Origin: Bacteroidia bacterium
Lineage (GTDB): Bacteria; Bacteroidota; Bacteroidia; UBA10329
DNA: 52,962 bases
Reading direction: 5' to 3'
Assembly: GCA_047611425.1 (NCBI GenBank)
Contig: JBLFWJ010000002.1
Coordinates: forward strand, 1 to 52,962
The notes beneath the pieces are model-generated. The model saw only the letters and a list, made by a program, of their open reading frames with translations, was not told the origin of the DNA and did no database searches. Within the stretch, counting starts at the first letter, position 1. Each line of letters starts with the position of its first letter. A program made the translations under genes and the position numbers. Below, in pieces: positions 5,396 to 22,206 of this stretch.

Positions 5396-6163
5396 TTACT
5401 GATTGAATCCTCGAAGTCGGATTTCTGTCAATACTTTTTTTGTGTAAGATGGAAAGTCAGCATCCATCATCCAGTTATAATAGGAAGGTTGTTGTTTGAG
5501 TATCTCGACAACAGGTTTTCCTTTGAATTTTCCAAAATTGAAACATTCTATTCCTTCTTCATTGTAGACAATATGTCCAGAGAAATCTGCGGCATTGTGC
5601 CTTCTAGAGAATTCATGGAGAAAGTCCATGTCATCGTTCAGCTCATCGTACTTCTCTAGCTGAGAACGAAACACTTCATAAGTTGCACGTGTATCTGCTT
5701 CGGCACTATGCGCATTTGTAAGATCCTTTTGACAATAGAATTTGTACGCTGCCACAAGCGTTCTTTGTTCCAACTTGTGAAAAATATTTTGGACATCGAC
5801 ACATCGTCTTCCTTTCATATTCATGTCAACGCCAACTCGCGCGAGCTCTTCCATTAGCATCGGTATGTCGAACCTGTTGCTATTGAACCCGCCTAAATCG
5901 GCATCGTCCATAAAGGCTACAACCTTTTGCGCCACCTCGCCAAACTTTGGGCTATCCTTTACCTTCTCATCGGTAATACCGTGTATGGCTGCAGACTCTG
6001 ATGGAATTGGCATCTCAGGGTGAACGAGCAGCGTAAGTGTTTCTTCCGATCCATCAGGATTAATCTTTAAACCCGAGTATTCTACAATTCGATCTTTGCC
6101 AACGTTAACACCTGTGGTTTCTAGGTCGAAGAACACCACTGGACGCGATAATTTCAATGTCAT
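5396..6163 (-). CDS. DEDDh 3'-5' exonuclease (DnaQ/epsilon-like domain protein)
   Basis: Exo I motif FFDLETTG, Exo II motif GFNSNRFDIPML and Exo III motif HSAEADTRAT. Confidence 0.85.
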   Translation of the reverse strand: MTLKLSRPVVFFDLETTGVNVGKDRIVEYSGLKINPDGSEETLTLLVHPEMPIPSESAAIHGITDEKVKDSPKFGEVAQKVVAFMDDADLGGFNSNRFDIPMLMEELARVGVDMNMKGRRCVDVQNIFHKLEQRTLVAAYKFYCQKDLTNAHSAEADTRATYEVFRSQLEKYDELNDDMDFLHEFSRRHNAADFSGHIVYNEEGIECFNFGKFKGKPVVEILKQQPSYYNWMMDADFPSYTKKVLTEIRLRGFNQ

Positions 6164-6172
6164 AAATCTGGT

Positions 6173-8164
6173 TTATTCAGGAAGCGTTAATCCATTCTGA
6201 AAGAGAACGGATTTTTTGACAATCTCTGGTTTGTAGTTCCCTAATCCAGGAATAGTCAATGGCTTTTCTATAGTTTGGAAACCATCCGCTTTGATGGTCA
6301 TATTGTAGTATCCAACTGGAAGTGTCGCAACTACTCTACCTGTTTTGTAATTCGGAAGGTAAGTTCCCATCAAATCTCCATTCACATCACTAATCGTAAT
6401 CATGATACCTAGTTCTGGAAAGCCCGTTACAGGGTTTTGGTCTATGGAAGCTCCCTGCTTTGCTACCTGTACCACCTTTTTCCTAGTGTCTACCCAAACA
6501 AAGGAATCATCTCCAACCGGAAACGTTGCTGGTGTGAATTTCTGAACACCTCCGCCACCAACTGATCCAATGACGGTTATGTCGCAGCGCTCCCCATCTT
6601 TCACCGTTTTCACAACTGTTTGATCAAATGACCATTCTGGTAAATCGAATGGTTGATACTCGTCCGTAAACTCTTTCAACGAACCATCTGATTTCTTCCA
6701 AACATGAAAATTGATTTTCTTCGCCACACCACCTACAGTGGCAAATGCTAATTCAGCAACAAATGCAGACAACCGCTCTTCTTTATCGTTATAGATAACT
6801 CGATAAATATCGGTATCACCAAGCCCGTTCAATCGCAATTGAGATACGTACGCTACTCTAGGGTCATTAGATGGGCAATAAGTGAAATTATCCTGTGTGT
6901 TATTCACTGGGTAACCTAAGTTTTCTGGCCTATCCCAACGTTTGAATTTATCATCCCATTCACTTTTAAATACATCATAGCCACCCATACTGTTGTGTCC
7001 CATTGATGCGAAATACAAGGTTTGTCCATCAAATGAAACATATGGATATTGCTCATCATATTGAGTGTTGATAGTTGGTCCTAGATTAACCGGGACGGAC
7101 CAAAGGCCACCAGGCAAACGTTTAGTCATGAAAATGTCTGTGCCTCCAAAACCAGGAGAGTCAAACGGGGTTCGCGCAAAATAGAAGGTTTGTCCATCAG
7201 GTGTACTGCTTGCACCTATTTCAGGTTCATCAGAATTAATCCCTGCACCCAGGGTTACCGCCTTGTTCCAACTTCTACCTCTTCTATCGGAATACCAAAT
7301 GTCATCTGTCGCGTCTTCGTTGTCGACACGGATGTACATATAGTTTCCATCGGCAGAAACGCTAACCAACTCCTCAATCCATTCGGAATTAACCACCATA
7401 CTGGCATTCTTTGCCCTGTCGAATTCATTGCCTTTTACCTTGCACATAAAAACATCAGGTGGCTTAAACCCATCATAATCCACCATGTTTCCAGCAACTC
7501 CTTTTTCTCTTTTTGTAGAGAACAAGAGGTAAGATTGATCCTCCGGTATGAATGGATTATAGTCTGGACCTGCAGAATTCACCTTGGCCCCTAGGTTTTT
7601 AAAGGTCACATCCAGAGGCTTGGCGATGAATTTCTTAGCTGAATTGCACATTTCAATTCTACGCGTCACATCGATAAGCAGAGCAGGATCCTTTTCAATT
7701 ACTTTATATTTATTGAAGAAGTAGAGAGCGCTATCTAGCTTCTCATTAAACATATAAGCCACCCCCAGCTCAAAAAGTGCCATATAGTCTGAATCTTCCA
7801 TATCAGCCACCTTCCGTAGATACTTTATGGCTCTTTTTTTATCCACATTTTGGTATAGGTGACAAAGACCAACACGATAATTGAAGAATTCATCTTCAGG
7901 TTTTTCCGCCAATAGCTCTATATAATGCGGCAAAGCATTCTTATAATCACCAATTAGGAAAAGTTTGTTGGCTCTGTCTTTAGGTCCGAGGGCTCGAATG
8001 TCGTCTCCTCCGTCTTGTCCCATTATCGTTGGCATTGTGGACCCAAAAAATAAAAGGACCATCAAAATGCGAAAGGCCTTCCCTAAATTAAAGATTGACG
8101 AAAACTCGTTGAACATGATTCGATTACCCGATTTGCGTTTGTTTAAAAGGGTTCCCGCCATCAT
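6173..8164 (-). CDS. PorE-like paralog E: TPR + PD40 (TolB-type) beta-propeller + extra ~110-aa segment + CRD-like beta-sandwich; no OmpA_C
   Basis: Signal peptide ...STMPTIMG|QD (Met17 is an alternative start). TPR-like helices are present (LFLIGDYKNALPHYIELL..., FELGVAYMFNEKLDSALYFF). PD40-type blades include SVSADGNYMYI, STPDGQTFYFA and VSFDGQTLYFASMGHNSMGGYDVF. The C-terminus GTYLPNYKTGRVVATLPVGYYNMTIKADGF is CRD-like. The ATGA overlaps the upstream gene. Confidence 0.7.
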   Translation of the reverse strand: MMAGTLLNKRKSGNRIMFNEFSSIFNLGKAFRILMVLLFFGSTMPTIMGQDGGDDIRALGPKDRANKLFLIGDYKNALPHYIELLAEKPEDEFFNYRVGLCHLYQNVDKKRAIKYLRKVADMEDSDYMALFELGVAYMFNEKLDSALYFFNKYKVIEKDPALLIDVTRRIEMCNSAKKFIAKPLDVTFKNLGAKVNSAGPDYNPFIPEDQSYLLFSTKREKGVAGNMVDYDGFKPPDVFMCKVKGNEFDRAKNASMVVNSEWIEELVSVSADGNYMYIRVDNEDATDDIWYSDRRGRSWNKAVTLGAGINSDEPEIGASSTPDGQTFYFARTPFDSPGFGGTDIFMTKRLPGGLWSVPVNLGPTINTQYDEQYPYVSFDGQTLYFASMGHNSMGGYDVFKSEWDDKFKRWDRPENLGYPVNNTQDNFTYCPSNDPRVAYVSQLRLNGLGDTDIYRVIYNDKEERLSAFVAELAFATVGGVAKKINFHVWKKSDGSLKEFTDEYQPFDLPEWSFDQTVVKTVKDGERCDITVIGSVGGGGVQKFTPATFPVGDDSFVWVDTRKKVVQVAKQGASIDQNPVTGFPELGIMITISDVNGDLMGTYLPNYKTGRVVATLPVGYYNMTIKADGFQTIEKPLTIPGLGNYKPEIVKKSVLFQNGLTLPE

Positions 8165-11100
8165 TCGTAAGATTTAAGTTCAAGGTTATAAAGCGCTTCC
8201 GTTATTGCAATATCCGTGTCTTTAAAGTAGAAAACACCGCCCCAGTCCCATATCTTCTTCTCATATACAGTAACTACGCCAGAAGCGTTCACAATATGTC
8301 TTGCTAGAGTAAAGCCTTTCCCGTTAACAATTTCTTCGGTAAGTCCTTCTGGGTAAATCTGAGCCAGCTCTGATAAAAATGCCAACCGTTGCTGTTCCGC
8401 ATCCAAATTCAATTCTTCAACCCGTTTCAACGCTTCCTCATATCGTTGTTGTCGTACATCTTCTTTATCAGATGGAGCTTCAGATGATGTTGCTGATTGA
8501 TCATTTTGAATTGCCTTAAGTGCAAGAGCTCGTGCGGCTTGTACTTCTGCTAATCGTGTCGCTTCAGCATCTTTCCGTGCCTGGTCGGCCGCAGCTTGTT
8601 CCTCAAATTTTCGCTTGGCCTCTTCTTTCTTTAAACGGTCTTTTTCTGCGGCATCGGCAATCAATGCCAACTGTTCATTTGCCTCTGCTATTTTAGCTTG
8701 AGGTACAGACTCAGTCGGTTTTAAGACAAGGGCTTGATCGAATTTATTCTTGGCTTCGGCATATTTGGCAGAAGCCATCAGATTATTACCATCCTGAAGC
8801 AAAAGCATGTACTCTCGTTCTTTGCCCGCCTTCTCCTTGTCCGAAGCAGCTATTTGAACCTTAAGGGCTTCAATCTGCTTTATCTGTTCTCTTGGCTCTT
8901 TTGCTCTTGGTTTTTCTTTTAAAGCACGATTGTATGCTGCAATGGCCTGATCGTAATCCCCTACTTCAAAAGCAAGTTCTGCCGTTTCAATTTGGTTGTG
9001 ATAGCGATCATCCAATGCTTGCGTTTCTCTTTCCGCTTTTGTAATATCCTTTTCAATTGATTCCAAGTCCTTGACCTTATCCTTAATTTCCTTTCCATCA
9101 GGTTTTAGAGCCAATCCTTGATCATACTGTGTTCGGGCCTTAGCATAGTCTTTCTTATCAAATGCTTGATTTCCTATTGTGAGGAATCTCAGGTAGTCTT
9201 CTTCTTTCTTTTTGGCGGCAAGGGCTGCATTAGCCTTCAGCTCGTCTTCATTCTTCTTCTGCAACTCAGCAGCTACTCTCTGTTCTTCCTTTGATTTTTC
9301 TAGCTCTACCCTTGCAGCAGCCTTGGCCTCTAAATCTGCCTTTTGCAAATCCTCCTTCTCCAACCTCAACTCTACCTTCTTTTGAGCAGCCTTTGCTTTT
9401 ATGCGCTCCGCTTCCAGCGCATCAAGCTGTGTTTGTCTGTCAGCAGCCCATCTATCTTCAACTTTTCTTTGATCCTCGGCTTTTCTACGGTTTTCCGCTT
9501 CTATATTTTGCTGGCGTTGTTTAACAGCCGCCAATTCATTTGCGTTGATTTCATCAATTCGCTCTTGTTCAGTAGCTATGCGAGCATTTTGTTTCTCAAA
9601 CTGCTCTCTTTGAAACAGAATCTGTTGTTTCTTTTCATCTTCTACTCTAGCCCTACGTTCCTCTTCTACTTTTTTCGCTACCGCTAGGTATTGTTCATCA
9701 GCTTTTCGTTTTTCATCCTCGGCTTTGCTAACCTTTGCTTGAGCTATTTCTTCTGCCCTTACCAATCTGGTCTCTTCGTACTTTCTTAAATGAGCAAATT
9801 GATCTGCTTTTTTCTCCTCATATTCTTGTTCTAAAATGTCTATCTCCTTTTGGTTTGCCGCAGCAAACATATCTTGATATCTGATGTTTGAAACTCCACC
9901 AACAGCATTTTTTTGAATTCTATAAGCATCGAACATTGCTTCTGCCTTTTCACGTCTGAACTCGGCATCTTTAGGAAGCGTCTCCATCAATGCTTCCACT
10001 GTATTTTCCCGTTCTCCACCACCTTGTGCAATTGCGTTTTCTAGTTCCTTGTATTTCTTGTTTCGTAAATCTCCAATAACTTGTTTGTGAACCACTTGAG
10101 CATCTTTTTCAGACTTAACACCTAACTCTCGTTTTTCAACTCTCACATTAGCCCGTTTTGCCTCAAGATCTTCCCACTGTCTTTGCTTTTCATCAAATCG
10201 GTCATTTTTCTTCTTTTGCTTCGCTTCATCCTCAGTTTGTTTTGCCACAGCAAATAGAGAGTTAAAGTCAATGCCGGAATAGTTATTTCCCCCTTGATTT
10301 ATCTGACGACTTTCCACATACGTGTCATAAACAGCCTGTGCCTTTTCCTCTTTGTATGGATCATTCTTCGAAAAGGCTTCTTGAAGCGCTTTAATCGTTT
10401 CTGCTCGTTCTCCATTTGAACTTTTAATGGCCTCCTCAATTTTCCTCACAGTTTCTTGCTCCTCAGCTATCTTCCTACCCTCAACTTTGGCCATAAATGC
10501 CGCTAACCTTGCTGAATCCGCTTGGTCTTTTGTAGAAGATTCATTTTCACGAGCCGCAAATTCAGCAGTAGAAGCCGCTGCAAATAGATTATCGAAATTC
10601 ATGCTGGAAAGTGTGGATCCAGTCTTTCGCATATTTTCATACTCTGCGTAAACTGCCGCGGCCTTTTCTTCCCTGTATGGGTCTTTTCCAAATTGCTTTT
10701 CAAGATTTTTTATGGCTGTTTCAGGGTTTCCATTTGCGTTGAAAATTGCTTGATAATAACTTTCGACCTTCTCTGCTTTGACTTCCTTTTGCCGTGACTC
10801 TTCTTCGGTAGCTGCTGCAGCGATTCTTTCTCGAGCCTCCAATTGAGACGAGGCGTTAGCTTTTGCCAACGCTTCAGATTGCGCTTGTTTTACCGCAAGT
10901 GTTGCATTTTGAACCTTTGCCTTTCTCTGTTCTTCAATTTCAGTCATTTCAGCCATATGCTGAACCTCAAATTCTTGAGTCGATTTAAAAATTGACTGAA
11001 AATCGATATTGGCAGTAGTACCACCTTGTTTCTTCTTTTCCTTCTCTAGCTCAGCAAAAATTATGTCCACTTTCTTAGCTCGAAGAGAATCTGACTTTGG

Positions 11101-11823
11101 ATAGATTTTAAGAAGTGATTCTTTAACTTTCGTCTCGTCTCCGCCAATCGTTGCCGTTGCTTTAATGATTTCAGCTGCTTCCAAACCATCTGATTCTAAC
11201 AGCATTTTAGCTGCCTCTTCTCGCTCAAACTTTTGTTGGGCTTCCAACTCGGCCTGTCGATGTCGTTCTTCTGCTAACCTTGCAAGACGTTCTTCTTCTA
11301 CTTGTTCCTCTTTAGTGTAATCAAGTTCATAGGCCATTGAATTTTTCCGAATGTCGTAGAACACTCTAGCCACGGCTCCTACATAGTCTAATCCATCAAG
11401 GTCTTTAACTAGATAAACATCGAACATAAACTTTGGCACTTTGGTTTCTGTAGATGCCGCCATAGTAACATCTGTGTCGAAGTCAACCATTTTGCTGGTA
11501 AATCCATCCTTTTCAACCTTAATGACATACATTTTATTAATGTCAAGATTAAAAGCAAATTTGCCATTCCCTTTCGTGACCATCTTCTTAATCTCGACCA
11601 AACCACTTTTAGATCCATCGGGGTCTTCAAAAATGGTAACCACGACCTCCTTTAGAGTTTTGCTCAGTTCTTTTGCATTACCTTCAATCTGAACCGGTGG
11701 TTTAACGTTTGATTGGTATTCGACTACTTCAGTGTATTCTCCATTATCCTGCCCAACCACATTCGATAGGCTAAAAATGAAGGCCGTTAGGCAAAGTAGT
11801 ATGTAGGTCTTTAAATCTGGCAT
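8161..11823 (-). CDS. 1220-aa secreted coiled-coil protein with N-terminal CRD-like domain, four ~68-aa repeat modules, three TPR-like units and a small globular C-terminal domain
   Basis: Signal peptide SLSNVVG|QD. The CRD-like stretch is VVVTIFEDPDG...KFAFNLDINKMYVIKVEKDGF. Roughly aa 170-1145 is E/K/A/Q/R-rich heptad-like sequence. Repeats and TPR units are described in the findings. Confidence 0.7.
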   Translation of the reverse strand: MPDLKTYILLCLTAFIFSLSNVVGQDNGEYTEVVEYQSNVKPPVQIEGNAKELSKTLKEVVVTIFEDPDGSKSGLVEIKKMVTKGNGKFAFNLDINKMYVIKVEKDGFTSKMVDFDTDVTMAASTETKVPKFMFDVYLVKDLDGLDYVGAVARVFYDIRKNSMAYELDYTKEEQVEEERLARLAEERHRQAELEAQQKFEREEAAKMLLESDGLEAAEIIKATATIGGDETKVKESLLKIYPKSDSLRAKKVDIIFAELEKEKKKQGGTTANIDFQSIFKSTQEFEVQHMAEMTEIEEQRKAKVQNATLAVKQAQSEALAKANASSQLEARERIAAAATEEESRQKEVKAEKVESYYQAIFNANGNPETAIKNLEKQFGKDPYREEKAAAVYAEYENMRKTGSTLSSMNFDNLFAAASTAEFAARENESSTKDQADSARLAAFMAKVEGRKIAEEQETVRKIEEAIKSSNGERAETIKALQEAFSKNDPYKEEKAQAVYDTYVESRQINQGGNNYSGIDFNSLFAVAKQTEDEAKQKKKNDRFDEKQRQWEDLEAKRANVRVEKRELGVKSEKDAQVVHKQVIGDLRNKKYKELENAIAQGGGERENTVEALMETLPKDAEFRREKAEAMFDAYRIQKNAVGGVSNIRYQDMFAAANQKEIDILEQEYEEKKADQFAHLRKYEETRLVRAEEIAQAKVSKAEDEKRKADEQYLAVAKKVEEERRARVEDEKKQQILFQREQFEKQNARIATEQERIDEINANELAAVKQRQQNIEAENRRKAEDQRKVEDRWAADRQTQLDALEAERIKAKAAQKKVELRLEKEDLQKADLEAKAAARVELEKSKEEQRVAAELQKKNEDELKANAALAAKKKEEDYLRFLTIGNQAFDKKDYAKARTQYDQGLALKPDGKEIKDKVKDLESIEKDITKAERETQALDDRYHNQIETAELAFEVGDYDQAIAAYNRALKEKPRAKEPREQIKQIEALKVQIAASDKEKAGKEREYMLLLQDGNNLMASAKYAEAKNKFDQALVLKPTESVPQAKIAEANEQLALIADAAEKDRLKKEEAKRKFEEQAAADQARKDAEATRLAEVQAARALALKAIQNDQSATSSEAPSDKEDVRQQRYEEALKRVEELNLDAEQQRLAFLSELAQIYPEGLTEEIVNGKGFTLARHIVNASGVVTVYEKKIWDWGGVFYFKDTDIAITEALYNLELKSYE
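9838..11172 (-). repeat. Four protein-level repeat modules inside the coiled-coil gene (approx. 10969-11172, 10549-10752, 10231-10434, 9838-10041)
   Basis: By eye, the modules share G.E...(I/V)..L.....K(D)P(Y/F)(R/K)EEKA.A(V/M)(Y/F)..Y ... (I/M)x(F/Y)xx(L/I/M)FAxA. Examples are NGNPETAIKNLEKQFGKDPYREEKAAAVYAEY...MNFDNLFAAAS and NGERAETIKALQEAFSKNDPYKEEKAQAVYDTY...IDFNSLFAVAK. Confidence 0.7.
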
Positions 11824-11854
11824 TTCCGCAACTTAATTCAACGAGTGATGTAAA

Positions 11855-14800
11855 TCATTTCCCCTCGGTGGTAATAACCGTCCCTCCTCCAACATCAACT
11901 ATGGTCAATTCAATTCTTCTATTCATCTGACGTCCTTCTGGATTGTCAGAACCGTCTGGATTCTCGTTAGGTGCAATATGTTTGGTTTCTCCATAACCCA
12001 TTGGCACAACTCTTTTAGATGAGACATTCTTCTTTTTTAACCATCCAACAACACTCTTGGCTCTATTTCTACTGAGTTTCATGTTATATTCATCTGAGCC
12101 ACGCGCATCTGTGTGTCCAGAAATCTCCACTTTCACTTTAGGGTAGTTGTCCATGAAAACCAATAATTTATTCAATTCTACAATTGACTCATCTCGAATA
12201 TTGTAACGGTCGAAATCGAAGTAAATCCTTTCTAGAATAATCTTGTCGCCCACTTTTAATTCTCGGCTGTTGTTAATGTCAGCGTCAAGCAATGTTGGGT
12301 CATAGCCCAAAGCACGTTGCTTTTCCATTGATGCCAGTTCCTCTTCCAGTCTAGCAATCTCTTCTTCCAATTCGCCTGTTGGTATATCCTGAACTGGCCT
12401 CACATCCACTATCTCAGGCTCTGTAAATTTCATAAAAGGAGAGAAACACACGTCATTAATTTCTTTTGAGTGACCATAACACGGGGTAATCTCATCACCA
12501 GTTTTGAAATACCACAATTCAGGATCTTTGTCCTTTGTTCCGGTAATCACATATTGGCTATTCTTTGAAATGTAGGTGGATGAAACAGGTTGGTCATTGC
12601 CGACAAATGCATTTCGAACACTTGAACTAACTGCATCCCAAGAATATATAAATGCATTGGTACTTGCCGACACAACTGTTCTGCTGTCTGGTGAAATCAT
12701 CACATCAGTAACAGCCGATCCATGAAGTTGAAATTCATTGAGCATTGCTCCAGTTGAGATGTCCCATCTCTTTGCTTTTCCATCCGACCCTCCGGTAACA
12801 ATATAACTGCCTGAAGGGGCATAAGAAACACTGAGCACAGGACCTGAATGTCCAGGAAAAACTCCAACCAGTTCCTCACTAATCACTTCCCACATTAGTA
12901 CATTCCCATCATCTGAAACAGAAACAAAGTAGTTTCCGTCAGGGCTTACTGCTACATCATTTACAGCAGCTTGATGACCATAATATGTTTTAAGAGCAAG
13001 TCCTGATTCAACATCAAAAAGTTTTATTGTTGAGTCTGAACTAGCAGAAAGGAAATATTTTCCATTTGGAATAAAGGAAGCTCCATTTACCCGAGCTTTA
13101 TGGCCATAGTAAGCCTTGTGCAAGGTACCATCCGGCAAATTCCATAGATTCACCTTTCCAGATTCCATTGCGTTCAATGCGTACTTACCGTAGGGTGAGA
13201 ATTCAACTGTTGTAACGTTTCCGGAGTTATAAAGGTCGAGCACCATTTTACAGTTAGGCACATCCCATATCAAAGCATGTCCATCAGGGCTACCTGACAT
13301 CGCATAAACATTACCACCTTGCTCCTCTCCAAGCATTCTCTTACGCCATTTTTCCGGATCGTTTCGAAGCGTGTAATCTTTAATAAGTTCTCGTACCTGT
13401 GCATTCTTACCCATTACTGTAAGTACTTCCGCTGTATCGTAGAATAACTCTGACTCGATGTATACGCAATAGCTACCAGGTTCAAGTACTTGTACGTAAT
13501 TACTAGACTTACCGTGTGGACGATAGGTTCCTATGAATTCGCCAGTAAGATCGTTGGTAACAGTCATAACGACATCTCCAATTTCAAAATTCGGATCCAT
13601 TGCTAGGGAGTCCTTGATATTGGTAACCGATCCCCGAACAATTGATTCGACTGGAATAACCTCATTAAACGTTACTCTATAAATATCCCTTTCACCTAAT
13701 CCGCCAGTTCGAAATTGTGATATGTAACCGTATCGGCCTGTCGTAGACATACTAATGTTAAAGTCATCATCAACAGTATTTATTGGATAGCCCACATTCC
13801 TTGGAACGGACCACGTATTTGTCAATTCATCCCATTCGGTAGTGAAAATGTCAAAACCGCCCATACTAGTATGCCCTTCACTACAGAAATAAAGGGTTCG
13901 ACCATTTGCGGCTAAGTGAGGAAACGATTCATTGTACTCTGTATTGATCACATCTGGTAGCCTCTGACCAATACCCCATCTGCCGTTAGGCAACCTTCGG
14001 CTCATGTACAAATCGGTTCCTTTTTTCCCTTTTCCAGTCTCGCGAGAAAAGAAAACTAAGTTTCCATCGGTGGAAAGTCCGGCCGTAGTTTCAATGTCAT
14101 CCGTATTGATATTCTTTCCGAAATCTTTGTATTCATCAAAGAATCTACCTTTTCGAGGAGAAACCATGATATCATCGTATCCATCAAAATTGTCGATGTA
14201 AACTAATAACTCTTGCCCATCGGCCGAAATCCCTACAACTTCCTCAAAATACTCTGTATTTACTGATGAACCGATATTGTGTGCTTCTTTGAATTTCCCT
14301 CTAACGGTTCTTGATCTGAAAATATCCGTTGCTTTGTATCCATCATAATCAAGATAAAGTCCCAAACAATCTGGTCTTTTGGTGCAGAAGACAATAAAAG
14401 ACTCATCCTCAGGAATAAACGGGTTATAATCCGGATACGGTGAATTAACTAGTCCACCGAGGTTTTCAAAAGTTACGTCTCTAGGGTATTTCAACAACTG
14501 CTTTCCATTAAAGCACATTTCAATCATCCTAGATCCCGTAATGATATTGTCTTCTTTCCCTCTGCTGATTTCCTTGAATTGATTAAACGTTGTTATTGCT
14601 TCATCAAATCGGTGTGCAAACATGTACGCCCTTCCTAGCTGATATATAGCCTCTTTGGGAAATTTCGGTTGCTGAACAACGTATTCAAGATATGAAATAG
14701 CCTTGGTTTTATCGATGTTTGACTCTAGGTAACAAGCTCCGATATAGAAGTTGGTTTCAACGTTAGAAGGATCCTTAGAAAGAAGGATGAGGAAATCTTC

Positions 14801-15040
14801 TATAGCAGCGCGAAAATTACCACCCCAGTAATAATCCATCGCTCCTCTTTTAGAGACCTTTAATCTTCTCTTATCCCTTTGTTCGTCACTCTCGTTAATA
14901 TCCCGATTGAATTCATCCTCAGAAACTTTGGTGATGTCCCGAGACTGGCCATTGGCCGTGGACCAAGAAGCCACAATGTATAGCATAATCGCAGCCAATC
15001 TGGTAAACCAATTGGTGAGATTGTATATCGGTTTTTTCAT
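11855..15040 (-). CDS. PorE-like paralog C: TPR + PD40 propeller + CRD + 7-bladed WD40 propeller + short coiled coil + OmpA_C peptidoglycan-binding domain
   Basis: Signal peptide ASWSTANG|QS. PD40 blades include GISADGQELLVY, GLSTDGNLVFFS and LAANGRTLYFCSEGHTSMGGFDIF. The CRD is TNDLTGEFIGTYRPHGKSSNYVQVLEPGSYCVYIES. WD40 blades lie at about 12431-13318. OmpA_C lies at about 11906-12238 (IYFDFDRYNIR...ISGHTDARGSDEYNMKLSRNRAKSV...NRRIEL). Confidence 0.8.
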   Translation of the reverse strand: MKKPIYNLTNWFTRLAAIMLYIVASWSTANGQSRDITKVSEDEFNRDINESDEQRDKRRLKVSKRGAMDYYWGGNFRAAIEDFLILLSKDPSNVETNFYIGACYLESNIDKTKAISYLEYVVQQPKFPKEAIYQLGRAYMFAHRFDEAITTFNQFKEISRGKEDNIITGSRMIEMCFNGKQLLKYPRDVTFENLGGLVNSPYPDYNPFIPEDESFIVFCTKRPDCLGLYLDYDGYKATDIFRSRTVRGKFKEAHNIGSSVNTEYFEEVVGISADGQELLVYIDNFDGYDDIMVSPRKGRFFDEYKDFGKNINTDDIETTAGLSTDGNLVFFSRETGKGKKGTDLYMSRRLPNGRWGIGQRLPDVINTEYNESFPHLAANGRTLYFCSEGHTSMGGFDIFTTEWDELTNTWSVPRNVGYPINTVDDDFNISMSTTGRYGYISQFRTGGLGERDIYRVTFNEVIPVESIVRGSVTNIKDSLAMDPNFEIGDVVMTVTNDLTGEFIGTYRPHGKSSNYVQVLEPGSYCVYIESELFYDTAEVLTVMGKNAQVRELIKDYTLRNDPEKWRKRMLGEEQGGNVYAMSGSPDGHALIWDVPNCKMVLDLYNSGNVTTVEFSPYGKYALNAMESGKVNLWNLPDGTLHKAYYGHKARVNGASFIPNGKYFLSASSDSTIKLFDVESGLALKTYYGHQAAVNDVAVSPDGNYFVSVSDDGNVLMWEVISEELVGVFPGHSGPVLSVSYAPSGSYIVTGGSDGKAKRWDISTGAMLNEFQLHGSAVTDVMISPDSRTVVSASTNAFIYSWDAVSSSVRNAFVGNDQPVSSTYISKNSQYVITGTKDKDPELWYFKTGDEITPCYGHSKEINDVCFSPFMKFTEPEIVDVRPVQDIPTGELEEEIARLEEELASMEKQRALGYDPTLLDADINNSRELKVGDKIILERIYFDFDRYNIRDESIVELNKLLVFMDNYPKVKVEISGHTDARGSDEYNMKLSRNRAKSVVGWLKKKNVSSKRVVPMGYGETKHIAPNENPDGSDNPEGRQMNRRIELTIVDVGGGTVITTEGK

Positions 15041-15177
15041 CGCAACGGCCCTATTGTGCGGACCAAATCAAGTCAACCACCAAATAAACTGAAACTAGAT
15101 CAGCGACACAAGAATATATCGATAATAAACACTTTAAATGCAAGAAAAGGTGGAGATAACCGTTTTATTCGGCTTGA

Positions 15178-18100
15178 TTAGGACCCAATCTGCAATCCTT
15201 TTGGAATGTTGATCTTCTCAACTTCCATCTTTTCGGTTTTGCCTGTTGGTAAACCAATCTCTATTCTTCGGTTTAAAGCTCTGCCTGATGGATTATCTGT
15301 TCCATCTGGATTTTCATTAATGGCAATCGGTCGTTGTTCTCCATAACCAACGGCTCTCAATCGGCTTTTACTTATACCCATATTGGTAAGGTACCTTAGA
15401 ACCGACTCGGCTCTAGTTTGAGATAAGCGCATATTGTAACCATTGTCTCCCTTAGAATCTGTGTGCCCCTCCACTACTATTGAGACTCCTGAGTTATCCT
15501 TGAGAAAGTAATATAGCTTATTCAACTCCTTCTTTGAAGTTGGTTTTAAAGAAGCTTGGTTGTAATCAAAGAAAATATTTTTGAGCACAAAATTCTTCCC
15601 GCTCTTCAACTCCTCAGCTGAGAAGACAGCTTCCCGGGGCTGGGGTTTTACTGCTCTACTAGTGCTCTTGCCGCTAACCCCCATGTTATTCATGATGATA
15701 TCCAGCTTTCGGTTAACCTCGGCAAATTGATCTCTGAGATCTTTGTTCTCATTAATCACTTGCTCATTCATTATTCGCAGCTCGTTAATATTGCCAGCGC
15801 TATTGTTTCGCGATTTTTCTTCTTCAGCCTTTCTAGCTGCCTCTGCCTTAGCTTCCTGTTTCTTTCTTTCCGCAGCACTTGCGATTTCTGATTGTCTAGC
15901 CGATTCCTCCTGGCGACTTAATTCTTCCAATCGATCCGATTCGAGTCGTGCAGCTTTCTCCTCTTTTAGCCTATCTGATTCTAAGTTCTCAAACTGACTA
16001 TCTAACTGCTTTACTTGCGACTCTAGTTGAGACCGTTCCTGATTATTAGAAGCGCCTTGAGCCAGTAAAGAACTTTTAGCTTCTTCAGCCTCAGAAAGCG
16101 ATTGCTCAGCTTTGTTCTTACGGTTCAGCACTTTTCTTCTTCTTTCATCCAGATTGGCCAATTCTTCATCAGCCTCCTTAATGTCAGATTCAGCCTTAGT
16201 TGCGACCAAAGACTCTTCCTCAGTTGACTTATCTATCCCCTTCTTCTCTGTTTTAAGCCTTGCGATTCTTGCAAGAGCATTAGCCTTCTTATCCTTGATT
16301 TCAGAAGAGCTAAGCGATTCTGCCTGAATAGATTGAATCGGGTTTTGCTTTACCGGCTCTTTCGTGACTTGCGCAACTTCTTGCTTTGGAGGAAGTTTGA
16401 TTGGCGCCTTCTTTATTTCTTGCTGCTTTGCAACCGGCTTAGTTTGCTGGGCTACAGGCTCTGCAGGTGTATCGTAACCAACTCCTTGTTTAGCTGCTTT
16501 TAACTTTTCTATCCTAGCCAAAAGTTCAGCACGCTTTTTCGCCACAGGATCAACGATTTCTTCAGTTCCTTCAGTTTTCACTGGCTCTTGTGAAGAAGCC
16601 AATTCTCCAGCTCTACTTTCCTCCTCTAATTGTTTAGCTAGCTCTGCCGATCGGGCCATCTCGGCCTTTTTATCCGCCTCAAGTTTAGCAGCGGCTTGTT
16701 CTTGCGCAATTCTATCGTCTGCCGCATTCTTGGCATCTAGCTCAGCTTCATTTTTTTTAGCGACTTCAGCCTGCTGAGCGGCCAGAATTTGCTGACGTTG
16801 TTTCTCTTGAGCCTCTTGTTCTGCTAATTGCTCTTCTTGAAGTTTCTGACCCTCACCCTCTGCTTGCTTTGCAGCTAAATCTTGCGCTGCTTTTTCACTA
16901 GGCTTTTGTTTCGAGGCTTCAATTCGTGCCGTCTGCGTATCAGCAGCTAATTGATCTATCTGTTCTCGCTCTATCCGCTTTCTTTCTGCATTTGCTGCTT
17001 CAGCTTCGGCCGCCTTTCTCAGCTGTTCGGCAGACTGTGCTTCCATGGCAAACTGATCTTCCACTTCTTGACGCTCTAACGCATCTGCTTCCTGCTGTGC
17101 AAGAAGGTCGGAATTCAATGCAGAGTTAGCAGCTGCGACTATCGCCAAACTATCTTCTTCTGCCTTCTTAGCTAATGCAGCAAGACGAGCCAATTCTTCT
17201 TGACGTTTCTTTGCTTGAAGAGCTAGAATCTCATCTCCAAACACCACTTCATCTAGCTCAATGGTTTTATTTATTTCGTAGTAAGTTGAGTTGTCTGGAA
17301 CGTCCACCAAAACTTCTTTAGAGGCATACCCATCAGCGTGATAAGTCACCTCATAATCTTCCCCCGGATCCAAAATAAGGATGTAACGGCCAGTTTCACG
17401 ATTCGGCCTGTACTCGCCAACAATAGATTCGGTACCCACCTCCCTTACAGTGATTTTCGCACCAAGATCCGAATACGCCATTGCTGGGACAGTCATTTTA
17501 CCCGCTAAAATCGTTACGGATGCGGCTTTGGTTTCCTCTAATTTGAGGAGGTATATATCCTGCTCTCCCATTCCTATTGACCGAACGGAAGAGTAATATG
17601 CGTATCGACCATCAGGAGTGGTAACGAAAAACATATCGTTCATAGGCGAGTTTATCGGGTATCCAATATTTTTAGGACTGCCCCATACTCCGTCAACAAG
17701 TTCCGATCGGAATAAATCAAACCCACCCATGCTGCGGTGGCCCTCTGAGCTAAAAATCAAAAATTTACCATCAACAGTTAGAAATGGTGATTCTTCAGCA
17801 TATGGCGTATTGATAGAATCGCCCATGTTTTGAGACAAACTCCACTCTCCATTTGGTAGCTTCCTAGTATAATAAAGATCTCTTTCTCCTCTTCCTCCTG
17901 GTCTATCGGACGTGAAGACAAGCAAATTCTCATCTGCAGAAACAGTAGCGTGTGTTTCCCACGAAGAAGAGTTTACATCAGACCCAACCTTTTTTGGTGT
18001 AGACCATTGACTTCCTTGAAGAACACTGAAATAAATGTCCATGTCCTTATATATATACAAGGTTTGGCCATCAGGTGATAATCCGATTGCTGCTTCGTGA

Positions 18101-18834
18101 TCCGCTGTATTAATGTTGGTACCAATGCTTGTCGGCTTAGACCAAGTGTCCCCAACTTTTTTGCAAACGAAAATATCATCAAAATACTCTCCAGTACCTG
18201 TCAAATCATCACCCGTACCTGTTTCTCTTCTACTTGTAAAAATTAGAGTTTGACCATCAGCAGAAAGAACAGGGCAGAAATCTTCGTACCGAGAATTAAT
18301 ACCTGGAGGAAGCTTATTAATCTTAACCTTTACCGGGTTTTCAGACAATTCTTTTCCAGTTTCGGCATATTCAATCTGACGTTTCACGTCATTGTATACT
18401 TCATAATCATCCATGTCAATGAATGATCTATAATTGAAGTAGTTACCTACAGCTTTATCATAGTCTCCGACCTTATGGTATGCACTTGCCAGATAATAAT
18501 AAGTCTTTCCTGGAGCACGCTTTTCTTTCCAGTTGGCCTCTTGATAGTCAAGTGCAACATTGCGGGTGGCGGTTTCCAAGAACGTAATTGCGCTTCGATA
18601 TTGACCTAGGCCTAAATGGCAAAGACCTATTCCGTGATTGATATTTGCATTGGAACTATCGTGGGCGTACATGTCCTTATACAAGACAATAGCCTCTTCG
18701 TAAGCACCATCGAACGCAAGTCCGTCAGCATCTTTGAATTTCTGTTTGAACTTTGAATCACCGAATGGTTGCGCAAACACTTGCGCAGAGATTGCCATTG
18801 CCGCCAAAATCAAGAGTAGGTTTCTCTTGATCAT
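15178..18834 (-). CDS. PorE-like paralog B: TPR + PD40 propeller + CRD + ~500-aa coiled-coil/Pro-rich spacer + OmpA_C domain
   Basis: I chose Met34 of the track ORF (15178..18933), which gives signal peptide MIKRNLLLILAAMAISAQVFA|QP. PD40 blades include VLSADGQTLIFTS, GLSPDGQTLYIY, VSADENLLVFTSDRPGG and FLTVDGKFLIFSSEGHRSMGGFDLF. The CRD is VGEYRPNRETGRYILILDPGEDYEVTYHADGY. OmpA_C lies at about 15253-15591 (IFFDYNQASL...VEGHTDSKGDNGYNMRLSQTRAESV...NRRIEI). Confidence 0.8.
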   Translation of the reverse strand: MIKRNLLLILAAMAISAQVFAQPFGDSKFKQKFKDADGLAFDGAYEEAIVLYKDMYAHDSSNANINHGIGLCHLGLGQYRSAITFLETATRNVALDYQEANWKEKRAPGKTYYYLASAYHKVGDYDKAVGNYFNYRSFIDMDDYEVYNDVKRQIEYAETGKELSENPVKVKINKLPPGINSRYEDFCPVLSADGQTLIFTSRRETGTGDDLTGTGEYFDDIFVCKKVGDTWSKPTSIGTNINTADHEAAIGLSPDGQTLYIYKDMDIYFSVLQGSQWSTPKKVGSDVNSSSWETHATVSADENLLVFTSDRPGGRGERDLYYTRKLPNGEWSLSQNMGDSINTPYAEESPFLTVDGKFLIFSSEGHRSMGGFDLFRSELVDGVWGSPKNIGYPINSPMNDMFFVTTPDGRYAYYSSVRSIGMGEQDIYLLKLEETKAASVTILAGKMTVPAMAYSDLGAKITVREVGTESIVGEYRPNRETGRYILILDPGEDYEVTYHADGYASKEVLVDVPDNSTYYEINKTIELDEVVFGDEILALQAKKRQEELARLAALAKKAEEDSLAIVAAANSALNSDLLAQQEADALERQEVEDQFAMEAQSAEQLRKAAEAEAANAERKRIEREQIDQLAADTQTARIEASKQKPSEKAAQDLAAKQAEGEGQKLQEEQLAEQEAQEKQRQQILAAQQAEVAKKNEAELDAKNAADDRIAQEQAAAKLEADKKAEMARSAELAKQLEEESRAGELASSQEPVKTEGTEEIVDPVAKKRAELLARIEKLKAAKQGVGYDTPAEPVAQQTKPVAKQQEIKKAPIKLPPKQEVAQVTKEPVKQNPIQSIQAESLSSSEIKDKKANALARIARLKTEKKGIDKSTEEESLVATKAESDIKEADEELANLDERRRKVLNRKNKAEQSLSEAEEAKSSLLAQGASNNQERSQLESQVKQLDSQFENLESDRLKEEKAARLESDRLEELSRQEESARQSEIASAAERKKQEAKAEAARKAEEEKSRNNSAGNINELRIMNEQVINENKDLRDQFAEVNRKLDIIMNNMGVSGKSTSRAVKPQPREAVFSAEELKSGKNFVLKNIFFDYNQASLKPTSKKELNKLYYFLKDNSGVSIVVEGHTDSKGDNGYNMRLSQTRAESVLRYLTNMGISKSRLRAVGYGEQRPIAINENPDGTDNPSGRALNRRIEIGLPTGKTEKMEVEKINIPKGLQIGS

Positions 18835-18974
18835 TGCAGCTGAGATGCCATTAAACATAGGATTCCACACTTTTAAAAACACTCCAGCCCTGTTGTTCGT
18901 TAAGCCGCGCAAAGCTAATAGAATATTGGGCACAAGGAATGTGACAAAAACATTGCTTTGGCCTTGCCTTTGAC

Positions 18975-20594
18975 CTACTTATTTTTAAGCACCATCTTCT
19001 TTAATTCGATGGTTCGATGAATCTCAAAATATGCGGTATTCTCAGGCACAAAAAGCTTCTCTGAGCGATACATATAACCCTCTGCTTCATAAGCAATATT
19101 GTAGTTGTTTCCAGGATGAAGAATTAAAATGAATGTTCCATTGTCGTTTCTTGGTTTGTAAACACCAAACATGTTCCCTGTCTCATTGTCCGAAACTGTA
19201 ATGAAAGCGTTTGGCGGCAATTTTCCATCGGCTCCTTTCGCAAACACTCCTCTATATACCGTCAAAGGAATCTCCTCCTCCAATCCCATATTCATCATAA
19301 AGATGTCCTTTCCACCTTTTCCACTTTGGTTGGAACTGGAATAGTATCCCCGCCTTCCATCGGGAGATGTATTGAAGAAATATTCGTCATCAGCGGTGTT
19401 TACCGGAATACCCATATTCATTGGAGTAGACCAATTTCCTTTTTCATCCATTACGCTGAAAAAAATGTCGTAACCGCCCATAGAGGTATGTCCTTTAGAA
19501 CTGAAGAACAACGTCTTTCCATCCGGGTGAATGAAAGGTGCTTCTTCGTCAAATGGCGTATTAATCTTATCGTTCAACTTGACTGGTTTTCCCCAATCAC
19601 CATTAGGCAAAAGACCTGCCTGGTAAATGTCCATACCAGAATCACCAGCTCTATCGCTGGTAAAATAAAGCAGTTGACCATTGGCCGTGATACTTACGTG
19701 CGTTTCACGAAATGTACTGTTGATGTTGTCGTTTAGCATAACTGGTTCTTGCCAAACTCCTCCATCTAATCTGGATTCATAAATGTTTCCATCACCAAAA
19801 TCATCCCTATAAATGAAGAGGCGCTGACCATCTGCACTCAAACTAATCGTTGCTTCATGGCCTTCCGTGTTGATATTGTCTCCAATACTCACAGGAGACT
19901 GCCACTCCCCATCTTTCTTCATCGACACGTAAATGTCCTCGAAGTACTTCTCATCCTCCGCAACATATCGACCTGTACTATTTGGCCTTCTAGAAGTGAA
20001 GATCATGGTGGTCTCGCTGGCATCGATTACTGGCGAATATTCATCATAAATTGAGTTAATGTTGTCTCCCAATCGAGTTACCTCGGCACTTATGGGTTGC
20101 TGAGCAATCAGGCTTCCATTCTTACACATTTCAATCTGTCGGTCAAGATCTGCGATTTGCTCCTTATCTGCCTTTGAAACTTTGCTCTTGTACTTTTCAT
20201 AAGAGGCAATGGCATTATTGTATTGCGATGCCAAGTGGTATGCACGGGCAAGTTGCAGAAAAGCATCTTCTGGTGCTGATGTTTCTTTAAAGTTATCCTT
20301 GTATTTACTGGATACGTTTGAAGCAGCCGCTTCCAAATACGGAACTGCCAAATGCTTATCGCCATTGATTCCCAAATAACAAACGCCAACCTTATAGTTA
20401 AAGTTGAAGTTTTTTGGATTGAGCTCTAAGAGCTCCAGGAAATTCTTTGCTGCCTGCGGATACTTTTTCGCTTCCAATTGCTTGTTGGCAATAGGATATA
20501 TCCGTTTGTAAGCAGAAGAAGTCTTTCCACCCTGAGCCATGGATTGCAATCCAAGGCAGGTAATAATTGCAATTACAGTGAATACTGTTCTCAT
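18975..20594 (-). CDS. PorE-like paralog A: TPR + PD40 propeller + CRD; no OmpA_C
   Basis: Signal peptide ...LGLQSMA|QG with TPR-like helices. PD40 blades include IDASETTMIFTSRRP, SLSADGQRLFIY, SITANGQLLYFTSDRAGDSG, FIHPDGKTLFFSSKGHTSMGGYDIF and NTSPDGRRGYYSS. The CRD is NMFGVYKPRNDNGTFILILHPGNNYNIAYEAEGY. Confidence 0.75.
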   Translation of the reverse strand: MRTVFTVIAIITCLGLQSMAQGGKTSSAYKRIYPIANKQLEAKKYPQAAKNFLELLELNPKNFNFNYKVGVCYLGINGDKHLAVPYLEAAASNVSSKYKDNFKETSAPEDAFLQLARAYHLASQYNNAIASYEKYKSKVSKADKEQIADLDRQIEMCKNGSLIAQQPISAEVTRLGDNINSIYDEYSPVIDASETTMIFTSRRPNSTGRYVAEDEKYFEDIYVSMKKDGEWQSPVSIGDNINTEGHEATISLSADGQRLFIYRDDFGDGNIYESRLDGGVWQEPVMLNDNINSTFRETHVSITANGQLLYFTSDRAGDSGMDIYQAGLLPNGDWGKPVKLNDKINTPFDEEAPFIHPDGKTLFFSSKGHTSMGGYDIFFSVMDEKGNWSTPMNMGIPVNTADDEYFFNTSPDGRRGYYSSSNQSGKGGKDIFMMNMGLEEEIPLTVYRGVFAKGADGKLPPNAFITVSDNETGNMFGVYKPRNDNGTFILILHPGNNYNIAYEAEGYMYRSEKLFVPENTAYFEIHRTIELKKMVLKNK

Positions 20595-20614
20595 GGTCTC
20601 GTATCGGTTCGGTC

Positions 20615-20642
20615 AAAAAAGATTCTCAGGTCAAAGAGAATC
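20615..20642 (-). terminator. Candidate intrinsic terminator after the E2 gene
   Basis: The minus strand reads GATTCTC-tttgacct-GAGAATC followed by TTTTTT. The stem is 7 bp and AT-rich, so it is only moderately stable. It is nested inside an outer 8-bp inverted repeat, CGTATCGG (20649-20656) / CCGATACG (20600-20607). Confidence 0.5.
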
Positions 20643-20665
20643 ATGCACCCGATACGGAAAACCGC

Positions 20666-21991
20666 TTAAATGGTTCTGTTAATATCGAAACTTTCGAGTA
20701 TTTGCGCCACCCTTTGCACAAACTTTCCTCCTAGCGAGCCATCAACCACACGGTGATCGTAGCTATGAGAAAGGAACATCATGTGACGAATTCCAATTAG
20801 ATCGCCTTGAGGCGTTTCAATAACGGCAGGTTTCTTTCTAATTGCACCAAGCGCAAGAATCGCAACTTGAGGCTGATTGATAATCGGGGTTCCCATCACG
20901 TTTCCAAACGTACCAACATTGGTCATTGTGTAAGTTCCACCTTGAATATCCTCAGGAGTGAGTTTGTTGTTTCTTGCTCGGTTGGCAAGATCATTCACAG
21001 CCTTGGTAAGACCCAAAAGGTTTTTCTGATCGGCATCTTTAATAACCGGAACAATCAAATTTCCACTTGGCAAAGCCGTGGCCATTCCAATATTGATGTG
21101 CTTTCGCTTAATCACATTCTGACCATCCGTAGAAACATTCACGCCTCTCATTTCAGAAATTGCCTGGGCAATTGCTTCTGCAAAAATTGGCGTAAAGGTT
21201 AACTTCTCTCCTTCCCGCTTTAGGAATTCATCCTTAATCTTGTTTCTCCAATTTACGATGTCGGTCACATCGGCCTCCACAAAACTGGTAACGTGGGGAG
21301 ATGTCTGCTTACTCATAACCATGTGGTCAGAAATGAGCTTTCGCATTCTGTCCATCTCCACAATCTCATCACCTTCCATAGAAACGATGGCTGGTGCAGA
21401 AACTGGAGCTTTCGCAACTGGAGCGGATTTCGCTGGCTTAGCCGTTGGAGCTGAAGCAGGTGTTCCGGTTCTATTAGGAATGTAGGCCAACATATCATGC
21501 TTGGTGACCCTTCCGTCTTTTCCAGTTCCTGATATTGCCTCCAACTCAGGCATTCCAATACCCTCGGATTTGGCCATGCTTCGAACGAGCGGAGAATAAA
21601 ATTTACCAGAGTCAGATCTTCTTTCTAAAACCACATCAACAACAGATTCAGCTATAACTGTAGAACCGTTGGCAGATGGAGCAACAGGTTGAGGTGCCTT
21701 CTCAGGAGCAGGAGCAGGTGTCGAATTCGTGGATCCGCCCGCTTCTTCAACATCCGTTGTAATGTACCCAACAATGGCACCGACAGCAACCACATCTCCT
21801 TCTTCACATAGCTTTTCCGTTAGAACACCCTCTACTGGAGATGGTATTTCGGAATCAACTTTATCCGTGGCAATTTCTAGGATTGACTCTTCCGATTCAA
21901 TCGTTTCTCCAACTTCCTTGCACCACCTGATAATGGTTGCTTCAGCTACACTCTCGCCCATTTTGGGCATAATCACTTCAATTTTTGCCAT
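20666..21991 (-). CDS. 2-oxoacid dehydrogenase E2 component (dihydrolipoamide acyltransferase); cognate complex not assignable
   Basis: I chose the start MAKIEVIMPKMGES (the track ORF extends to 22018). Lipoyl motif EIATDKVDSE. E3/E1-binding domain SPLVRSMAKSEGIGMPELEAISGTGKDGRVTKHDM. Catalytic motif SHSYDHRVVDG. There is no adjacent E1 gene. Confidence 0.85.
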   Translation of the reverse strand: MAKIEVIMPKMGESVAEATIIRWCKEVGETIESEESILEIATDKVDSEIPSPVEGVLTEKLCEEGDVVAVGAIVGYITTDVEEAGGSTNSTPAPAPEKAPQPVAPSANGSTVIAESVVDVVLERRSDSGKFYSPLVRSMAKSEGIGMPELEAISGTGKDGRVTKHDMLAYIPNRTGTPASAPTAKPAKSAPVAKAPVSAPAIVSMEGDEIVEMDRMRKLISDHMVMSKQTSPHVTSFVEADVTDIVNWRNKIKDEFLKREGEKLTFTPIFAEAIAQAISEMRGVNVSTDGQNVIKRKHINIGMATALPSGNLIVPVIKDADQKNLLGLTKAVNDLANRARNNKLTPEDIQGGTYTMTNVGTFGNVMGTPIINQPQVAILALGAIRKKPAVIETPQGDLIGIRHMMFLSHSYDHRVVDGSLGGKFVQRVAQILESFDINRTI

Positions 21992-22206
21992 CGAATTGTC
22001 CTGTTTTAAGGGGCGCAAAGGTAAGTGGAATGTGCTGATATTGAAATGCTGGTCTTAGCATTGGTTAGATGCTTTGGTGATTGGTACTTCCCAAAAGGCA
22101 CTGAACTCCCTTTGGTCGGTTCAACTCCGGTCAGGGGACACCCTTCAGGAGCCTGGAGGCCAGCGCTTTGGATGATGGCTCGTTAAAGTATAGTGAGATT
22201 CTTATG

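Follow-up and report, generated by a model that had tools for sequence, protein, structure and literature searches.

A canonical seven-bladed WD40 propeller inserted into an exported PorE/CHU_0125-like OmpA-family protein of one family of Bacteroidia

How did a WD40 propeller come to stand between the CRD and OmpA_C domains of an exported bacterial protein, and what might it do there? The question is raised by a gene on a 52,962-nucleotide stretch of Bacteroidia DNA (in the following called the window; contig JBLFWJ010000002.1 of assembly GCA_047611425.1, lineage UBA10329). According to translation of the open reading frame (ORF) and to Pfam and NCBIfam scans, this gene (11855..15040, minus strand) encodes an exported PorE/CHU_0125-like multidomain OmpA-family protein of 1061 amino acids (aa), here called P0001, with the domain order signal peptide, TPR, PD40 propeller, CRD, WD40, linker helix and OmpA_C. 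A first-pass annotation of the window had proposed a eukaryote-type seven-bladed WD40 propeller inserted between CRD and OmpA_C. The reading that we favour, at a probability of about 0.7, is that P0001 is a wall-anchored periplasmic scaffold in which a WD40 domain, inserted in the ancestor of one family, was retained as an extra docking platform.

Positions 12431-13318 of the window (minus strand) correspond to residues 575-870 of P0001, and the seven repeat strings proposed for this region were all found in the translation, as was the trailing GHSKEINDVCFSPF. The similarity of these residues to WD40 is far beyond chance. The hidden Markov model of the WD40 family (PF00400), which had been suggested as a check, matched P0001 in four stretches with an E value of 1.4e-45 and 152.2 bits against a cut-off of 27, and thus assigns the protein to that family. 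In a genome-level search with the same model the gene gave four repeat matches, three of them above the cut-off. P0001 also exceeded the cut-off of the propeller family PF25173 (Beta-prop_WDR3_1st; 176.6 bits against 154).

A model of full-length P0001 was obtained with AlphaFold2 from a 99-sequence alignment (A2); its mean predicted local distance difference test (pLDDT) value is 83.5 and its predicted template modelling score (pTM) 0.51. Residues 579-866 form 28 beta strands, i.e. seven times four, and blocks of ten residues have pLDDT values of 89-95 for 581-810 and of 85-91 from there to 870. The region is thus predicted as a closed seven-bladed fold of four-stranded blades. Superposition with VIA-align gave the best score for 7bid, a seven-bladed WD40 design (Z 46.0; root-mean-square deviation (rmsd) 1.2 Å; 285 of 286 residues; range 578-869), followed by the highly repetitive propeller 2ymu_A (Z 40.9; 1.3 Å; 275 aligned residues; 576-858), the WD40 domain of Thermomonospora PkwA, 5yzv_C (Z 40.6; 1.4 Å; 276; 596-872), and WDR5 entries (Z ~38; 1.7 Å; ~278; 594-872). 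Foldseek likewise matched 7bid (template modelling score 0.95 normalised on the target; rmsd 1.2 Å) and the PkwA WD40 domain. The canonical propeller, delimited by PF00400, the 28 model strands and the superposition on 7bid, occupies aa 578-869 (12434..13309, minus strand), and the seven canonical blades claimed for it are borne out. Its first sequence unit contributes three strands and the trailing GHSKEINDVCFSP unit one, giving 3 + 6x4 + 1 = 28; these strand counts, rather than coordinates, fit the velcro-style closure of the ring by the trailing strand that had been suggested.

That this is a second propeller, different from the PD40/TolB-type one further upstream, also holds. The predicted model, inspected for two independent propellers, contains two separate rings. 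Between them lie the CRD (aa 466-553) and low-confidence linkers, which marks them as separate domains; the linkers flanking the WD40 ring, residues 571-575 and 875-887, have pLDDT values below 50. Eukaryotic double-propeller proteins were aligned by Foldseek over ~700 columns only at an rmsd above 30 Å, as expected of two rings that differ in mutual orientation. Within the WD40 domain, the six full repeat units are on average 25% identical to one another (range 14-34%). This degree of divergence indicates an old, complete propeller that was acquired whole and not amplified in place; recent blade amplification as an origin of the domain was ruled out on the same grounds.

Homologues were then compared across the junction. 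A search with P0001 returned 1043 proteins at E ≤ 0.001, the best 120 of which were listed. Among the matches listed, 59 full-length clusters of 996-1108 aa combine WD40 and OmpA and represent orthologues of P0001 with 61-76% identity (two further ones are partial), and 24 clusters of 739-764 aa, 50-67% identical over about half of the query, have no WD40 Pfam family. In an alignment with the latter (A1), the short forms follow P0001 to about residue 567 and resume at residue 871, with some six residues (MDQTYA-type) in between; their MEIPKVE segment is aligned with MKFTEPE directly after the insert of P0001. In close short relatives the flanks are 60-67% identical to P0001, and the linker helix and OmpA_C are common to short forms and P0001. 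The inserted cassette delimited in this way comprises aa ~568-870, i.e. ~303 residues (12431..13339, minus strand). As to its site, the first-pass annotation was right on the CRD side, but on the other side the insert adjoins the conserved linker helix (residues 888-910) and not OmpA_C directly.

The short forms also occupy the same place in the genome. At a locus of a sister family (L017), consecutive genes encode proteins of 454, 562, 1164, 749, 1158, 653, 254 and 213 aa, and in the window proteins of 450, 539, 1251, 1061, 1220, 663, 255 and 203 aa. This matching gene order makes the short form of 749 aa the positional orthologue of the 1061-aa WD40 form. Such WD40-less positional orthologues (e.g. 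P0063, P0067 and P0072) share cluster slot, linker helix and OmpA_C with P0001, and differ from it in having ~6 residues instead of the cassette. An insertion relative to close relatives, as originally proposed, is therefore what the 739-764 aa forms indicate.

A tree of the flanks was calculated with the insert columns removed (727 columns, 99 rows; IQ-TREE quick, LG+G4). All 60 WD40 rows group in a single clade, with a Shimodaira-Hasegawa-like approximate likelihood ratio test (SH-aLRT) support of 100. Its sister is a WD40-less clade of 17 rows (support of the joint node, 84), and WD40-less groups of four and three rows, and then 15 outgroup rows, diverge earlier. As the WD40 clade is nested among successive WD40-less groups, one change suffices, which indicates a single gain. 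Across all 60 WD40 orthologues the insert comprises 325-337 aligned residues. Its mean identity among 59 orthologues is 52%, compared with 74% for the N-terminal and 73.5% for the C-terminal flank; the most conserved part is the repeat unit at aa 690-729, in which 17 of 40 columns are conserved at ≥95%.

The distribution of the module was determined in a sample of the order (24 genomes, representing one family and three genera) and in 401 genomes of the class. In the order, the WD40 module was present in 17 of the 24 genomes and in 11 of the 14 of good quality, in frames of 1059-1099 aa except for two that are cut by contig ends. A short WD40-less form was not seen in any of the 24 genomes in a whole-protein search. 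One genome without a WD40 match (G017) has a fragment of the orthologue at a contig end, which covers aa 926-1061 with 79% identity. In the class-wide sample the full-length WD40 form is confined to this family; two other families have short forms that are 63-65% identical to aa 29-565, and a third has a form of 750-778 aa with 50-52% identity.

These data bear on the polarity of the change. The forms of 739-764 aa and of 1061 aa could descend from an ancestor that had the domain, which the sister lineages then deleted cleanly. The WD40 form is indeed the usual one within its own family, as the proportion of genomes given above indicates, and to that extent the objection foreseen in the first-pass annotation, namely that homologues might reveal an ancestral, ubiquitous form, holds; it fails against the sister families. 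Likewise, the tree polarises the single change only if its root is trusted. With the outgroup root, at least three scarless losses would have to be assumed in place of one gain. Moreover, the wider PorE/CHU_0125 family (~650-690 aa) lacks WD40, and in the nearest sister family no WD40 match at E ≤ 1e-25 was detected in any of eight sampled genomes. We therefore regard an ancestral WD40 domain as highly improbable.

Where the inserted domain came from was addressed by searching with the insert alone. phmmer against 1.84 billion representatives yielded 391,596 matches, the best 150 of which are giant multi-propeller proteins with 26-39% identity. By their names, ten of the closest clusters are from fungi, Anaerolineaceae and Desulfobacterales, or are metagenome proteins without a name. 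The best non-family match in the 401 class genomes had an E value of 2.5e-34 (27-42% identity over partial ranges), and the best match in 401 genomes of the phylum one of 1.1e-34 (31-38% over partial ranges). A donor was thus not found among the best 150 of the 391,596 database matches, in the 401 class and 401 phylum genomes or in the organism's own genome. The closest matches were both fungal and bacterial. The sole other WD40 ORF of the genome (G000:C98:~11400-12417; locus L003:1378-2394, plus strand) encodes at least 339 aa, is cut by the contig end and is 21-31% identical to the insert. Its start resembles a signal peptide ending in AAFGQD, and it may encode a second exported WD40 protein.

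If a fragment of a eukaryotic WD40 gene had recently been captured by horizontal transfer, this would account for two of the observations: some fungal sequences are among the most similar ones, and the best-scoring Pfam propeller sub-families are named after the eukaryotic proteins WDR3, THOC3, Prp19 and WDR5. We nevertheless consider such a capture hardly credible. Identity to sequences outside the family does not exceed 39% among the best 150 database matches or 42% over partial ranges in the class and phylum genomes, and the nearest named clusters include Anaerolineaceae and Desulfobacterales besides fungi. Among solved propellers, WDR5 is a poorer match than 2ymu_A and Thermomonospora 5yzv_C, and the internal repeat identity of 25% on average argues for an old domain. 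The term "eukaryote-type" used in the first-pass annotation is not supported, given that 2ymu_A and the prokaryotic 5yzv_C outrank WDR5 and that the most similar sequences (38-39% identity) are a mixture from fungi, Anaerolineaceae and Desulfobacterales; it is no better supported than "bacterial-type".

The remaining parts of P0001 were assigned as follows. The signal peptide (aa 1-31; 14948..15040, minus strand) consists of a hydrophobic helix, modelled as residues 4-32, and ends at ANG/QSRDI; a disordered stretch follows the helix in the model. Residues 1-40 contain no cysteine, which fits a type I signal peptide rather than that of a lipoprotein. Cleavage is predicted before Q32, a residue that is nearly invariant in the 99-sequence alignment; a glutamine directly after the cleavage site agrees with the Q-rule described for Bacteroidetes (PMC5837995, PMC10653852). 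A TPR-like helical domain at aa 52-184 (14489..14887, minus strand) was recognised from the model helices; it lies within the CHU_0125 and PorE profile matches, and TPR Pfam matches are found in paralogues. The first propeller (aa 189-458; 13667..14476, minus strand) is of the PD40/TolB type, as judged from PF07676 and the model strands. PF07676 matched aa 361-399 with 46.3 bits (cut-off 20.9), and P0001 thus counts as a member of this family. Counting of the strands assigned by DSSP suggests about five blades; the equivalent propeller of PorE, modelled on TolB, is described as five-bladed (PMC5053529). The CRD, a carboxypeptidase-regulatory-like beta-sandwich (aa 466-553; 13382..13645, minus strand), was delimited by model strands and lies inside the CHU_0125 profile match to residues 67-557; PF13620 is present in this region of relatives, and in the model a short helix follows the domain.

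Downstream of the WD40 ring, the linker helix (aa 888-910; 12311..12379, minus strand; LxxEIxxLEKELA-type, followed by LGYDPTLL) was identified in the model and in alignments A1 and A2, in which it is conserved in forms with and without WD40 alike. The OmpA_C fold (aa 933-1049; 11894..12244, minus strand) was assigned by PF00691 and the model. PF00691 matched aa 940-1030 with 65.5 bits, which is above the cut-off of 27.2 and makes P0001 a member of the OmpA family, and a sequence search matched the domain to the solved C-terminal domain of PorE (6top; E 4.5e-16) as well as to Pal and OprF. Residues T977, D978, G981, N986, L989, S990, R993 and V997 are invariant in the 99 sequences, and LSRNRAKSVVGWL agrees with the motif LSX2RAX2VX3L given by Heath et al. 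(PMC5053529). The peptidoglycan-binding motif of OmpA_C is thus intact. The best match of the C-terminal 177 aa (window 11858-12388) to a PDB sequence was 7f4v_aB (E 1.8e-29), a chain of 872 aa named photosystem I PsaB; its residues 752-864 align to OmpA_C, so the chain appears to have an OmpA-like C-terminal extension.

The gene for P0001 is part of a compact cluster of five co-oriented genes (6173-20594, minus strand), separated by gaps of 41, 137, 31 and -4 nucleotides. They encode a 539-aa TPR/PD40 protein, a 1251-aa protein with a charged spacer and OmpA, the 1061-aa WD40 form, a 1220-aa protein that is mainly rich in E/K/R/A/Q and has TPR at its C-terminus, and a 663-aa TPR/PD40 protein. 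The five-gene order is kept in the sister family (L017), a four-gene version is present in a third family (L018), and the WD40 form stands in the same cluster at four related public loci. Scans of positions 5900-22300 gave 33 promoter-like sites, compared with 29.1 expected, using a method not designed for promoters of Bacteroidota, and 17 terminator-like sites, compared with 13.7 expected; both are at chance level. Outside the cluster, a 240-aa ORF at 23077-23799 (plus strand) has a C-terminal sorting domain for type IX secretion (T9SS; PF18962, 33.1 bits), from which it follows that the organism has T9SS cargo.

Taken together, P0001, of the PorE/CHU_0125 superfamily, would be a scaffold exported by Sec into the periplasm and probably held on peptidoglycan by its C-terminal OmpA_C domain, while its TPR and PD40-propeller modules may dock other envelope proteins. 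A complete, already diverged WD40 domain of ~303 residues would have entered, in frame, the ancestor from which one uncultured family of Flavobacteriales type descends, at the flexible linker between CRD and the helix that precedes OmpA_C, and been retained in that family ever since. Predicted to be an independent ring on two flexible linkers, it most likely serves as an extra protein-docking platform within the conserved five-gene envelope cluster; the protein is read as such a scaffold by analogy with PorE and CHU_0125. On these premises, P0001 is a clean, datable case in which a whole WD40 propeller was dropped into a flexible linker within a bacterial envelope scaffold and kept thereafter across a family, and in which a canonical WD40 ring would be placed in the periplasm, tethered to peptidoglycan. 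This setting is not mentioned in the main text of a survey of prokaryotic WD40 proteins (PMC5587647). It is a tidy domain insertion, and no new mechanism or system is revealed by it.

Several points weigh against this interpretation. The periplasmic location is deduced from the signal peptide and OmpA_C. The 84-row ingroup of the flank tree is rooted by 15 distant homologues, several of them on long branches, and the direction of the WD40 change depends on this outgroup root and on parsimony. Seven of the 24 genomes of the order have no WD40 match; the assemblies are in 80-470 contigs, three of them 90-95% complete, and some species of the family may have lost the domain secondarily. One WD40-form orthologue (G002:C298:4290-7382), from a genome that is 70% complete, contains an in-frame TGA, which could be a sequencing error or denote a pseudogene. 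Finally, the WD40 domain evolves faster than its flanks, and this would also fit a looser, spacer-like role.

Such a role, in which the ring has no specific ligand and, mainly as a rigid body, makes the tether from the wall-bound OmpA_C to the outer modules longer or stiffer, is brought to mind also by the neighbouring gene. Residues 72-558 and 924-1047 of P0001 align in BLASTP to residues 74-560 and 1105-1228 of the 1251-aa protein of the cluster (P0281; paralog B of the first-pass annotation). Between these blocks paralog B has, as had been stated, a spacer at the same CRD/OmpA_C junction (aa 561-1104; 15622..17253, minus strand), which is 544 residues long, charged and of a helical type (59% E/K/R/A/Q, 1% aromatic residues, 4.6% P+G), with no Pfam match in it. 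Paralogues of one cluster thus carry unrelated inserts at one junction, and paralog B is of variable length among relatives, with frames of ~980-1557 aa; both observations, together with the lower conservation of WD40 relative to its flanks (52% against 74%), favour a spacer. At one related locus (L007:6258-10534) the position of paralog B is taken by two ORFs of 978 and 518 aa, the second with PG_binding_1 and OmpA, which points either to a gene split in two or to a C-terminal anchor of different design. On the other hand, a folded seven-blade ring is a costly device for a gain of no more than a few nanometres, rings of the WD40 type usually serve as platforms for interactions, and the constant length of the insert in 60 orthologues and its one strongly conserved repeat unit resemble what is expected of a conserved surface. 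A purely geometric function is thus rather unlikely.

The two inserts had also led to the proposal that the CRD/OmpA_C junction is a permissive cassette site. Two cases in one operon support it, and they hint that extra modules are tolerated at this site of a PorE-like scaffold, a point of possible use in engineering or interpreting PorE-family proteins. Two other long homologues do not extend the series: P0100 differs by tandem OmpA domains and P0104 by a duplicated module, and neither has an insert at this junction. Other length variants given by Heath et al. are described without a WD40 insert (PMC5053529). Free-standing WD40+OmpA proteins were not found among the 120 rows listed for a 495-aa WD40-helix-OmpA query (proteins of 272-867 aa); 12 of these rows pair WD40-type families with PF00691, and all 12 are fragments, 53-63% identical, of the P0001 orthologue group.

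Alternatively, the WD40 ring might be a built-in regulator of the TolB kind, which binds the Pal-like OmpA_C domain of P0001 itself or of paralog B and gates its binding to peptidoglycan. OmpA_C is Pal-like by sequence, WD40 is inserted immediately upstream of the OmpA_C module, and TolB, a periplasmic propeller of E. coli, is described as binding Pal, the TolB-Pal structure 2w8b having served to model the propeller of PorE (PMC5053529). Against this, the full-length model with its pTM of 0.51 does not place WD40 on OmpA_C with confidence, and a propeller of the TolB type that could fill this role is already present in the family. A separate model of residues 561-1061, based on a 9-sequence alignment only, had a pTM of 0.60, with pLDDT values above 90 for WD40, 60-80 for OmpA_C and below 50 for the linker; it likewise gave no confident position of the one domain on the other, which does not speak against a contact between them. 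Gating by the ring in this narrow sense appears very doubtful. A broader version is speculative and in our view unlikely: the ring as a lineage-added, TolB-like control that docks OmpA_C of either protein, or a lineage-specific partner, and thereby switches the wall attachment of a five-protein tether. If it were true, Bacteroidota would retune envelope scaffolds by plugging modules into the CRD/OmpA_C linker.

The extra docking platform favoured here has to be seen against what is known of related proteins. The NCBIfam model that matched P0001 best was NF053607 (CHU_0125; residues 67-557), with 270.5 bits against a cut-off of 620, and NF052230 (PorE) scored 220.3 bits against a cut-off of 600; P0001 thus falls outside both families. 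When the genome was searched with the PorE model, the P0001 gene scored 137.5 bits, and a 670-aa frame elsewhere (G000:C48:10309-12252, minus strand) 590.5 bits, just below the cut-off, over model positions 5-648. At least four further PorE-like paralogues are located on other contigs. In view of the low scores and of the better PorE candidate, P0001 is a paralogue in the PorE/CHU_0125 superfamily and is neither of the two proteins, so that the label "PorE-like" used in the first-pass annotation is apt for the superfamily relation only.

PorE of Porphyromonas gingivalis (PG1058) acts in type IX secretion, and P0001 is probably a wall-anchored periplasmic scaffold likewise. The four-domain order of PorE (TPR, beta-propeller, CRD, OmpA_C) is found in P0001 with one inserted domain. 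PorE is described as an outer-membrane lipoprotein whose N-terminal cysteine is acylated after the signal peptide (PMC7192894); P0001 lacks this cysteine, and a conserved glutamine follows its signal peptide. P0001 differs further in having, between CRD and OmpA_C, the seven-bladed WD40 ring and a linker helix, and in that its gene lies in a five-gene cluster of paralogues and not among T9SS genes. For PorE, the peptidoglycan-binding residues of OmpA_C are reported as essential, the propeller as implicated in binding of PorP and CRD as dispensable (PMC12773672). In the accessible text of the PorE literature, "WD40" denotes the PD40-type propeller, and a second, canonical WD40 domain at the CRD/OmpA_C junction is not mentioned (PMC12773672, PMC7192894, PMC5053529). 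Nor was a paper on a canonical WD40 domain inserted in a PorE-like or OmpA protein found in the open-access literature, and the terms OmpA, signal peptide, Bacteroidetes and secreted do not occur in the main text of the prokaryotic WD40 survey, the supplements of which may list architectures (PMC5587647). Proteins of the P0001 type are already in public databases, labelled "OmpA family protein" or "WD40 repeat protein".

CHU_0125 of Cytophaga hutchinsonii, an OmpA-like outer-membrane integrity protein of 656 aa, has the design of TPR, PD40 and OmpA_C in common with P0001, but not the WD40 insert. Its deletion is reported to impair outer-membrane integrity and to increase vesicle production (PMC5891637), and by analogy this phenotype suggests the kind of role that might be expected for P0001.

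With respect to the inserted ring itself, Thermomonospora PkwA (5yzv) and 2ymu are likewise seven-bladed canonical WD40 rings and are only 28-32% identical to the insert. 5yzv is the WD40 domain of a protein named as a kinase, which we take to be cytoplasmic, whereas the ring of P0001 sits in an exported protein and is fused to a wall-binding domain. Precedent for periplasmic beta-propellers as docking platforms near a wall anchor of the OmpA_C/Pal type is provided by TolB-Pal and BamB. TolB and BamB belong to other propeller families, with six and eight blades, and are separate polypeptides, unlike the WD40 ring of P0001.

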